Below are positions 1 to 4,755 of a DNA stretch of 64,000 nucleotides, one piece after another (position 1 is the stretch's first letter; each line of letters opens with the position of its first letter). A model generated the notes under the pieces. It had not been told where the DNA came from. It worked only from the letters and a program-made list of their open reading frames with translations, and made no database searches. This stretch comes from Escherichia phage Killian, in the sequence record OQ446694.1; one strand, 5' to 3'. Both the position numbers and the translations under genes were made by a program.

Positions 1-29
1 CAAGATTTCGGCTATTATTAAGAGGACTT

Positions 30-2978
30 ATGGCTACTTTAAAACAAATACAATTTAAAAGAAGCAAAACTGCAGGTCAACGCCCTGCTGCTTCAGTATT
101 AGCCGAAGGTGAATTGGCTATTAATTTAAAAGATAAAACAATTTTCACAAAAGATGACTCAGGCAGTGTTATAGAATTAGGTTTAAAATATGGAGGAACA
201 ATTGATGGTTCTTTAACTGTTAATGGAAGTATAATTGGAAATTTAACAGGTAACGCTGCAACTGCAACGAAATTGCAAACACCTAGGAAAATTAATGGTA
301 TATCTTTTGATGGGTCAAAGGACATTACCTTAACTCCATCTGACATAAATGTCAATAGCACAACATTTATAAAAAATAACGGCGAATTACCTGTTGACGC
401 TAATTTAGATGAGTATGGGCCTGTTGAAGAATATCTTGGAGTTTGGTCGAAATCTACTTCAACAAATGCGCAACCTGCAAATAAATTCCCAGAAGAAAAT
501 GCCGTAGGTGTATTAGAAGTATTTGTGGCCGGTCAATTTGCTGGTACTCAGAGATATACTGTAAGATCTGGTAACGTATATGTTCGATCTTTGTCTGCTA
601 AATGGAATGGTGTTAATGGTCCGTGGGGTGTGTGGCGTAATGTTCAAGCGTCAACTCGTCCACTTTCACAAACGATTGACCTTGATAGCTTGGGAGAATT
701 AGAACATTGTGGCTTATGGCGAAACAGTTCAAGCGCAATCGCATCATTTGATCGCCATTATCCAGAAGAAGGATCAGCCGCACAAGGATTTTTAGAAATA
801 TTTGAAGGTGGTTTATACACGAGAACGCAGCGTTATACTACCCGCATGGGTATGGTTTATACTCGTTGTCTCGCTGCTGCATGGGATGCTAGTGCACCTA
901 AGTGGGAGGAATGGAAGCAGGTTGGTCATGGCACACCAGCGACTTTCTATGATGGAGATCTGAATGATTTTAAAACTCCTGGGTTATATAATATTTTAGG
1001 CACTGATGCCGTTATTAACTGCCCTACAGGTGAAGGTTTACCAGCCGTTATTGTTGGTTTGCTGGAAGTTAAACAGCGTGCTTCTGGCGGTGCTATTTTC
1101 CAAAAATTTACTACTGCCGGAACAGGTGCAACTACCCGCGATCGTATTTTTGAGCGCGCATATACTGGTGGCGCGTGGGGTGCATGGAACGAAGTATATA
1201 CATCTTATTCTCTGCCAATTACTTTGGGTATGGGTGGCATTAAAGCTCAATTAGCGGAGTTAGATTGGCAAACCTTTGATTTTGTCCCTGGTAGTATGTT
1301 TAGCGTTCCTTTGAACAAAATAAAGAACATGCCAGCAAATATGGATTGGGGGACGATTGACGGAAACTTGGTTATGTTTTCTGTCGGTCCTAGCGAACAT
1401 ACTAGCACAGGGCGTACTGTTCAGGTTTGGCGTGGTACTGTATCCCAGACAAACTACCGTTATTTTGTCGTTCGTGTATTCGGTAATTCAGGAAATAGAA
1501 CTTGCACAGTTCGTCGTGTTGTTCTTGAAGACGGATCACATACTTGGACTGCTCAACAAAACTTTAGGGGATTGCTGAATATCACTGCTGCTGTTAATCT
1601 TGGCGCTAATCAGAAAATTTCACTTGCTCCAGGAGCATATATTCAAGCTCCTGCTAGCGGTTCTGGTTCTAATACTTACGCAAATCAGAATACTACCGTT
1701 GCGCCATTATATCAGGCCATTAACGATTCAAATAAAAACCAGTTTGCGCCAATTGTTAAACAGAAAAACACTGTAACAAATATTACTATGGCTTCTGGTA
1801 TGGATATTGCTAGTTCAGAATATCGTATCGTTGCTCAGGGTGATTTATCCGCTACTGGAACTACAGCCACTGAATTAGCTACATGGCGTTTCTTGCCGTC
1901 TGGCCGATTCATGTCACAAAGTCGAGTTTACGCTGGAGCAGCATTCCTTAATACCGATGGTAATATTTCTGGTTCTATCTGGAAGAAATATAATAATGCA
2001 ACCAATTTAGACGCTGCCTTGAATACTCGCCTAGGTAAAGGCGGTGATACGATGACAGGTCGGTTAACAATCAATGCACCTAATGATTCTATTGTATTAT
2101 CAACAACTGCTAGTAATTCTTTGCATATTCGCGGTGACATAGACGGGACTGGTAACTGGTATATTGGCAAGGGTGGTGCTGATAATTCGCTAGCATTTTA
2201 TAGCTATGCTTCTCAGGCGGCAGTACATATCACAAACAATGGTGAGATTGCGTTAAACCCGCAAAATACCGCAATGGTTAACGTTAACCGTGACCGTGTA
2301 CACATTAACGGTTCTGGATGGATTGCTAGACAACCGGGTGATTGGGGCAACCAATGGCGAGTAGAAGCTCCATTATTCGTTGATCATGGTTATGTTAGTC
2401 AAGATAGTTATTATCCTATTCTTAAAGCAAGAAGCGTTATAACCAATCAAGGATATAGCACCGCTGTTGACTTTGGTATGCGTCGTATTCCATCACAGTG
2501 GGGGCAAGCAATCATTCGTGTCGGATCCACGGAGGCTTCTCCTGATGCTGGACACCCACAAGCTGTGTTTGAATTCCATCATGATGGATTCTTTTATACA
2601 CCAGGAAATGGTAGCTTTAGCGATGTGTATATTCGTTCTGACTCCCGTCTCAAGATTAATAAAGAAGAATTAGAATATGGAGCAGTCGAAAAAGTTTGCC
2701 GACTAAAAGTTTATATTTACGATAAAGTTAAGTCTATTAAAGACCGTAGTGTTATTAAACGTGAAGTTGGTATTATTGCTCAGGACCTTGAAAAGGAATT
2801 ACCGGAAGCTGTATCTAAAGTTGAAGTTGATGGATCTGATGTTCTGACAATTTCTAACTCTGCTGTGAATGCTCTTTTAATTAAGGCCATTCAGGAAATG
2901 AGCGAAGAAATTAAAGAATTGAAAACACCTTTCTTCACTAAAATTGCTCGTAAAATTAGCAATTATTTTAAATTCTAA
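30..2978 (+). CDS. 37: Long tail fiber distal subunit gp37 (982 aa) with C-terminal intramolecular-chaperone-like domain
   Basis: N-terminus [13 protein letters not shown]...[16 protein letters not shown] matches the conserved gp37 N-terminus of T4 as recalled; C-terminal ~110 aa ([20 protein letters not shown]...) resembles auto-cleaving chaperone domains of phage fibers; SD AAGAGGA before ATG at 30; lies directly upstream of gp38 and t. Confidence 0.9.
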
Positions 2979-2982
2979 CAAC

Positions 2983-2999
2983 AAGGGGCTTTGCCCCCT
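2983..2999 (+). other. GC-rich stem-loop (AAGGGGC-TTT-GCCCCCTT) between genes 37 and 38
   Basis: Perfect 6-bp G/C stem seen directly in sequence, immediately after gp37 stop; no clear U-tract, so more likely an RNA stability or processing hairpin than a strong terminator. Confidence 0.4.
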
Positions 3000-3011
3000 T
3001 TGGAGAAAATT

Positions 3012-3794
3012 ATGGCAGTAGTTGGTGTTCCTGGTTGGATTGGTAGTTCATCCGTAAATGAAACAGGACAACGATGGATGAGTCAAGCGGCTGGTCAATT
3101 AAGATTGGGTATTCCTTGTTGGATGAGTCAATTTGCAGGTCGCTCAAGAGAAATTATTCACACGCTTGGAGCAGACCATAACTTCAATGGTCAATGGTTC
3201 CGAGATAGATGTTTTGAGGCAGGTAGTGCACCTATAGTGTTTAATATCACTGGAGATTTAGTATCATATTCTAAAGATGTTCCTTTATTCTTTATGTACG
3301 GAGATACACCGAATGAATATGTTCAGTTGAACATACATGGTGTAACGATGTATGGTCGTGGCGGGAATGGCGGTAGCAATAGTCCTGGCTCAGCTGGGGG
3401 TCATTGTATTCAAAATGATATTGGTGGGAGACTAAGAATTAATAATGGCGGAGCTATTGCTGGCGGCGGTGGCGGCGGTGGCGGCGGGTATTATTCTCCT
3501 TTTTCACAAATGAGATTGACCTTTGGCGGTGGCGGCGGTCGTCCGTTTGGCGCACCGGGCGGATCTATTGATATGCAATCAGGAGCAACTGCTGGTACTA
3601 TTTCTGCGCCAGGCGCAGGGTCTGTGAACGGTATCTACAACGGCGGGTCTGGTGGTGAAGTTGGCTCCGCAGGAGGTAGATGTAATATTCGTGGTCAAGG
3701 ATATGAATACGATGGCGGAGCTGCTGGTTATGCCGTCATAGGGTCTACACCGACATGGCAAAACGTTGGAACAATTTACGGACCAAGAGTATAA
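3012..3794 (+). CDS. 38: Tail fiber adhesin gp38, T2-type with glycine-rich motifs
   Basis: [13 protein letters not shown]... N-terminus and repeated polyglycine motifs ([30 protein letters not shown]) are typical of T2-like gp38 adhesins; ATG at 3012 has SD GGAG, whereas the ORF-track start at 2991 is TTG inside the hairpin. Confidence 0.85.
3462..3488. repeat. GGC/GGT trinucleotide repeat encoding the polyglycine tract of gp38
   Basis: ggcggcggt ggcggcggt ggcggcggg read directly; a second shorter GGY run at 3524-3541. Confidence 0.8.
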
Positions 3795-3825
3795 TTTTGA
3801 ATAAATATCCTTAAAAGGAGGGTCT

Positions 3826-4482
3826 ATGGCAGCACCTAGAATATCATTTTCGCCCTCTGATATTCTGTTGGGTGTTCTAGATCGCTTGTTCAAAGATAAT
3901 GCTACCGGGAAAGTTCTTGCTTCCCGGGTAGCTGTCGTAATTCTTTTGTTTATAATGGCGATTGTTTGGTATAGGGGAGATAGTTTCTTTGAGTACTATA
4001 AGCAATCAAAGTATGAAACATACAGTGAAATTATTGAAAAGGAAAGAAATGCACGCTTTGAATCTGTCGCCCTGGAACAACTCCAGATAGTTCATATATC
4101 ATCTGAGGCAGACTTTAGTGCGGTGTATTCTTTCCGCCCTAAAAACTTAAACTATTTTGTTGATATTATAGCATATGAAGGAAAATTACCTTCAACAATA
4201 AGCGAAAAATCACTTGGAGGATATCCTGTTGATAAAACTATGGATGAATATACAGTTCATTTAAATGGACGTCATTATTATTCCGACTCAAAATTTGCTT
4301 TTTTACCAACTAAAAAGCCTACTCCCGAAATAAATTACATGTACAGTTGTCCATATTTCAATTTGGATAATATCTATGCTGGAACAATAACCATGTACTG
4401 GTATAGAAATGATCATATAAGTAATGACCGCCTTGAATCAATATGTTCTCAGGCGGCCAGAATATTAGGAAGGGCTAAATAA
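3826..4482 (+). CDS. t: Holin T (218 aa)
   Basis: MAAPRISFSPSDIL...ARILGRAK is near-identical to T4 holin as recalled; single N-terminal TM segment; SD AAGGAGGG before ATG. Confidence 0.95.
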   Translation: MAAPRISFSPSDILLGVLDRLFKDNATGKVLASRVAVVILLFIMAIVWYRGDSFFEYYKQSKYETYSEIIEKERNARFESVALEQLQIVHISSEADFSAVYSFRPKNLNYFVDIIAYEGKLPSTISEKSLGGYPVDKTMDEYTVHLNGRHYYSDSKFAFLPTKKPTPEINYMYSCPYFNLDNIYAGTITMYWYRNDHISNDRLESICSQAARILGRAK

Positions 4483-4755
4483 TTATTTGTTTGTATACAT
4501 CTCTAGATATCGATATACACCCTCAAAACCCTCGTTGAATTCGTCGATGAGGGTTTTCTTATCTTCTTGAGTTAATTCAGAAACAATTTTACGGAATGAA
4601 TTCTGATTTAACTTTCTACCTTCATGCGTTACTCCAATCTCATTCAGAAATGCAATAAAATTAGCGCGATTCTCAACAATATCTTCTCTGGAAAATTTAA
4701 TCAAAATAGACGCAACAGTAATAATTTCACGAACTGTATCAATGTTTTTATTCAT
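4483..4755 (-). CDS. asiA: Anti-sigma70 factor AsiA (90 aa)
   Basis: MNKNIDTVREIITVASILIKFSREDIVENRANFIAFLNEIG... matches T4 AsiA from memory; convergent with t. Confidence 0.95.
   Translation of the reverse strand: MNKNIDTVREIITVASILIKFSREDIVENRANFIAFLNEIGVTHEGRKLNQNSFRKIVSELTQEDKKTLIDEFNEGFEGVYRYLEMYTNK

Follow-up and report, generated by a model that had tools for sequence, protein, structure and literature searches.

The long-tail-fibre locus of Escherichia phage Killian raises the question of how the receptor-binding end of the fibre is made, and in particular whether the distal subunit gp37 ends in an intramolecular chaperone (IMC) that cleaves itself off before the adhesin gp38 attaches. 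The window analysed here (64,000 nt of record OQ446694.1) begins inside the T-even long-tail-fibre gene cluster, and its positions 1-4500 share 94-96% nucleotide identity with many Tequatrovirus genomes (DCP2, Shinka, WilhelmHis/Bas35, PST and others), in which the corresponding genes carry the annotations long tail fibre distal subunit, adhesin/receptor-recognising protein, holin and anti-sigma factor. The features of the fibre shaft are as follows:

30..2978, plus strand: gene 37, precursor of the long tail fibre distal subunit (ORF; 982 aa, 106.9 kDa)
2106..2258, plus strand: gp37_trimer region, residues 693-743 (Pfam PF20744; E 8.2e-6, 26.2 bits against a cutoff of 21.7)
30..2636, plus strand: mature gp37 as predicted (94.0 kDa), comprising residues 1-869 with the beta-strand motif DVYIR at its end, which is placed by the position of SDSRLK

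The gene 37 product, for which the ORF bears out the 982 aa given in the initial annotation, was identified as the distal subunit by its N-terminus together with its PHROG and Pfam matches, the former being to PHROG 1699 ('long tail fiber protein distal subunit', E 3e-207). Its amino acid identity to T6 gp37 (AF052605) is 94% over residues 1-524 and 88% over residues 677-982, and the T6 gp38 is 92% identical to the gp38 encoded here; judged by these sequence identities, the distal fibre is therefore of the T6 type. Residues ~525-676 of the mid-shaft (window ~1602-2057) do not align to T6 gp37. This stretch is a mosaic segment exchanged within the fibre shaft, a case of ordinary fibre mosaicism.

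It had also been suggested that gp37 is short, which is true relative to T4 gp37 (1026 aa) only and does not hold as an anomaly, given lengths of 749 aa in S16, 993 aa in T6 and 1341 aa in T2; after this comparison, length was dropped as a signal. The gp37 of WilhelmHis (Bas35) has exactly 982 aa. Shaft length in gp37 proteins varies through mosaic exchange, and the S16, T6 and T2 proteins share the same tip architecture despite their different lengths, whereas the T4 protein has a different one. T4 gp37 is homologous at its N-terminus to the protein studied here (79% over 66 aa) and holds the same place in the gene order 36-37-38-t, but it lacks an S74 domain (no match under the same Pfam scoring) and carries its own receptor-binding tip with the Pfam domains Collar and Phage_fiber, both of which were absent from the window gp37 in the Pfam scan. 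No similarity was found between the C-terminal parts of the two proteins, and the T4 gp38 is an assembly chaperone unrelated to the gp38 of the window.

What occupies the C-terminus of gp37 instead is a Peptidase_S74-type IMC:

2637..2975, plus strand: C-terminal IMC/Peptidase_S74 domain, residues 870-982 (Ser870-Phe982; 113 aa, 12.9 kDa), with release predicted after folding of the trimer

Peptidase_S74 ('chaperone of endosialidase', PF13884) matched residues 870-928 with an E-value of 6.4e-10 and 39.6 bits, which is 17 bits over the gathering cutoff of 22 bits, and the match covered positions 1-57 of the 58 in the profile. Reference proteins scored in the same way gave 44.9 bits (S16 gp37), 35.9 bits (T5 pb1), 36.3 bits (K1F endosialidase), 56.5 bits (T2 gp37) and 33.4 bits (T6 gp37). 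The domain lies at the extreme C-terminus of the fibre protein, so the proposal that the last ~110 residues resemble a self-cleaving chaperone was well founded; the start proposed for it (2560) precedes the domain boundary by 77 nt (~26 codons) and is off the reading frame by one base, the codon of residue 844 beginning at 2559, so that 2560-2978 translated as given contains 7 stop codons. Over its C-terminal 139 aa, gp37 shows 100% identity to phage a51 and 95.7% to T6, and homologues of this region occur in 1486 phage records, many of which are annotated as S74. A single-sequence search of the PDB with the C-terminal region returned S16 gp37 as its sole match, and a weak one (E 0.0085), while a profile built from 27 homologues matched the same protein (6F45_A) with an E-value of 2.2e-13. 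A eukaryotic relative of the S74/IMC domain is known in the ICA domain of MyRF. This domain (7DC3) was also matched by the 27-homologue profile, as was the tail fibre 8JOV. The structures of K1F, T5 and GA-1 were missed by both the single-sequence and the profile searches of the PDB and were reached by fold comparison.

The fold was examined in an AlphaFold2 monomer model of residues 844-982 (a 139-residue fragment; mean pLDDT 64), in which pLDDT is 71-81 over residues ~884-963 and below 50 over residues 844-878, the cleavage site included. The elements of the model, in gp37 numbering, are:

885-891: helix
895-900 and 908-914: hairpin
917-923: helix
928-933 and 936-941: hairpin
943-979: long C-terminal helix (2856..2966, plus strand; H100-136 of the fragment), predicted to form a trimeric coiled coil

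The model thus shows a mixed alpha/beta part with a beta-hairpin followed by a long helix, the arrangement that characterizes the IMC family, and helix 943-979 has its counterpart in the coiled coil at the centre of the T5 and K1F IMCs (PMC4690869). The S74 fold sought in residues ~850-982 was accordingly recovered by the Pfam profile, by the profile-against-PDB search and by fold comparison, and these three together refute the idea that the similarity is a chance or compositional match, for instance to a coiled-coil tail. Such a match has a negligible likelihood, because the Pfam hit, with its wide margin over the cutoff, covers the N-terminal, non-helical portion of the domain, the top structural matches align 90-114 residues and so extend beyond the helix alone, and the homologous phage records are numerous.

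A C-terminal IMC raises the further question of whether it has what is needed to cut itself off. In a MAFFT alignment the SDxxxK motif of distant homologues was moved six residues relative to the window sequence, and we therefore relied on the alignment to reference proteins and on Pfam profile coordinates, which place the catalytic residues as follows:

2634..2639, plus strand: predicted scissile bond Arg869-Ser870, with Ser870 (TCT, 2637-2639) as predicted nucleophile (alignment and Pfam position 1)
2652..2654, plus strand: Lys875 (AAG), predicted general base at Ser+5 (alignment of SDSRLK)

The serine column is invariant among the six aligned proteins (S870 in the window, S881 in T6, S1243 in T2, S638 in S16, S1264 in T5 and S911 in K1F), and this serine is the first residue of the domain, position 1 of the Pfam profile falling on S870 here and on S1264 in T5. 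A GxxAQ core is conserved in the same set of C-terminal regions. Five of the six have a lysine at Ser+5, namely SDSRLK in the window, SDIRLK in T2, SDRRIK in S16, SDARLK in T5 (K1269) and SNGERK in K1F (K916). The T6 entry (AF052605, 1998) has AAC (Asn) for residue 886 at this position, as against AAG (Lys) in the window, with an X residue nearby. Because the same record also holds this X, the Asn is probably a sequencing error rather than the mark of an IMC without the lysine; if it were real, the need for the lysine would be put in question.

In T5 pb1 the exchange S1264A blocks autoproteolysis, and a role has been described for K1269 (PMC4690869). This bears on the alternative that the C-terminal piece is cut off by a separate phage or host protease and not by autocatalysis, an alternative that has in its favour that the original work on T2, as it is cited, established cleavage and not its mechanism. 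The T5 experiment, in which replacement of the aligned serine by alanine abolished cleavage, was done with recombinant protein and no other phage factor (PMC4690869), and the S16 gp37 made for crystallography is described, in the account given by PMC7917993, as autocleaved; we consider a separate protease very improbable. In this family an Asp and an Arg ahead of the cleavage site, contributed by a neighbouring chain, tie cleavage to correct folding of the trimer; those that act as folding sensors in T5 (Asp1239 and Arg1250) had no counterpart that could be mapped in the window gp37, the regions ahead of the cleavage site aligning unreliably. Autoproteolytic release is known from T5, K1F and S16, and on the strength of these homologues gp37 of this phage would be cleaved autocatalytically.

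The junction itself reads DVYIR^SDSRLKINK in the window (^ marking the predicted cut). For gp37 of the Yersinia Tequatrovirus phages fPS-2/65/90, an autocleavage site was predicted at DVYIR^SDGRLKI by alignment to S16, where it corresponds to DLNVS^SDRRIKK (Salem et al., 2021; PMC7917993). The fPS junction (DVYIR^SD) is the same as that in the window gp37, with the same DVYIR strand and a single different position within the IMC (Ser872 for Gly), and for proteins almost identical to this one the cleavage site proposed here is thus a published prediction. In the T6 and T6-like Tequatrovirus phages as a group (a51, WilhelmHis/Bas35, PST, fPS-2/65/90) the C-terminal domain is without differences from that of the window gp37. 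Biochemical proof that T2 gp37 is processed comes from Drexler et al. (1986), as cited by Trojet et al. (PMC3157838); according to the latter, reports of T2 and T6 gp37 processing date back to 1986. Like the window protein, T2 gp37 combines a C-terminal S74 domain with the junction NVYIR^SDIRLK and a gp38 adhesin downstream; it differs in the length of its precursor and in its 99-aa IMC, and the two domains are ~40% identical.

The partner that such a tip would require is encoded directly downstream of gene 37 and is a gp38 of the adhesin type:

3012..3794, plus strand: gene 38, adhesin of the T6 type at the tail-fibre tip (260 aa; ATG at 3012; GGAG at 3001-3004)
3012..3137, plus strand: N-terminal attachment domain of gp38 with W9, W22 and W37 (Gp38_N on residues 8-49 of the 267-aa ORF; alignment to the S16 tryptophans)

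The start at ATG 3012 is almost certainly correct. A TTG at 2991, which opens the mechanical ORF 2991-3794 (267 aa), was rejected, since GGAG lies 7 nt upstream of ATG 3012 and Gp38_N begins at that Met; the gp38 of Bas35 is likewise annotated at 260 aa. The protein matches both GP38 (PF05268; E 1.1e-71) and Gp38_N (PF21721; E 4.2e-20) in Pfam. In the PDB it matches PP01 gp38 (9V85; E 1.3e-79) over residues 38-260 and S16 gp38 (6F45_D; E 1.4e-49) over its full length, with the three N-terminal tryptophans aligned. Its differences from T6 gp38 are scattered and include the glycine-rich C-terminal half.

In the model published for the fPS phages, three DVYIR strands make up a flat tip on which the N-terminal Trp 'prongs' of gp38 dock once the IMC has gone, and in S16, as presented in the same work, the docking surface for gp38 exists only after release of the IMC (PMC7917993). 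It could nevertheless be argued that the S74-like domain of Killian is never released and serves the mature fibre as a lasting trimerisation module, much as the caudal fin remains uncleaved in the P22 tailspike, and that gp38 binds elsewhere, as cleavage in this phage rests on homology and the segment around the cleavage site is poorly modelled by AlphaFold2. Ser870 and Lys875, however, are intact and aligned with proven catalytic residues, the docking tryptophans are conserved here, while the surface that S16 gp38 uses is described as formed only on IMC release, and gp37 of T2 and T6 is reported as cleaved in the account of PMC3157838. Retention of the domain is, in our opinion, very improbable, though marginally less so than cleavage by a separate protease. 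The initial annotation had pointed to a T2/S16-style tip with a gp38 adhesin, and the S74 domain, the Ser/Lys pair and a gp38 of the T2/T6/S16 type with its docking domain are all present. IMC autocleavage followed by gp38 docking, the sequence of events described for S16, T2/T6 and T6-like Yersinia phages as far as these are covered in PMC7917993 and PMC3157838, is thus the supported reading for this phage also, where it would run by analogy.

Our data make it highly probable that gp37 is a 982-residue precursor with an IMC that would be autocleaved before the tip is capped by gp38. The scheme proposed takes its components from what was established here (domain identity, fold, catalytic residues, junction motif and partner gene) and its course, that is autocleavage, release and the order of events, from the homologues. 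Following synthesis of the precursor, three C-terminal domains would associate via their long C-terminal helices, by analogy with K1F endosialidase, T5 pb1 and S16 gp37, and the resulting IMC trimer would nucleate the trimeric, beta-structured fibre tip and set its register. In the correctly folded trimer, Lys875 would activate Ser870, which would cut the Arg869-Ser870 bond in each chain; the 12.9-kDa chaperone trimer would then depart and expose a flat tip of DVYIR strands. A single gp38 would dock on this DVYIR tip through its Trp-bearing N-terminal domain and would there provide the long tail fibre with its receptor-binding tip.

Among characterized structures, the S16 tip (6F45) has the same architecture, with an IMC of ~112-113 aa, an SDxRxK motif and then a gp38 with an N-terminal Trp docking domain. 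The two systems differ in that IMC identity is only ~26%, the S16 shaft is shorter, the P1 residue is Ser in S16 and Arg in the window gp37, and the S16 region before the junction is unrelated to that of the window except for the last few residues. More distant are K1F endosialidase (3GW6), T5 pb1 (4UW8), GA-1 gp12 (3GUD) and the MyRF ICA (7DC3), which share 10-20% sequence identity with the window IMC. The hairpin 'tentacles' are much shorter here (113-aa domain) than in K1F (154 aa) and T5 (133 aa), and in these four proteins the functional tip is the exposed end itself; in the window gp37, by contrast, that end would be a platform on which a separate adhesin docks.

The T6-type IMC ends in a 17-residue basic/aromatic tail (residues 966-982; window 2925-2975) that is missing from T2 and from homologues 60-67% identical, and that AlphaFold2 models with low confidence as prolonging the terminal helix. 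Two further readings are conceivable, although we regard both as a long shot. The tail might do more than lengthen the helix, for instance by bringing gp38 or gp57A to the trimer during folding, in which case chaperone release and adhesin capping would be coupled; alternatively, the released 12.9-kDa trimer might have a second role in the infected cell. A GGGGC-UUU-GCCCC hairpin (2985-2997), located after the stop codon of gene 37 and ahead of the Shine-Dalgarno sequence of gene 38, was rejected as a candidate feature, since the region folds no more stably than shuffled sequences (z -0.30). The gene after gp38 encodes holin T (Pfam), and just after it the positions and lengths of the ORFs, compared with the T2 and Bas35 records, follow the T-even order asiA, motA, gene 52. 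Beyond 4.5 kb nearly all ORFs of at least 150 aa lie on the minus strand. Across the 64-kb window, the ARAGORN search for tRNA genes was negative, as was the Rfam scan at the gathering scores of the families.

The IMC on gp37 is real, but it is already known for T2, T6-like and S16 phages and adds no new biology. For annotation, it means that mature virion gp37 should be taken as 869 residues (94 kDa) and not 982, with receptor binding residing in gp38. In fibre engineering and host-range swaps, the matching gp37 tip (DVYIR), IMC and N-terminal domain of gp38 must be kept together.
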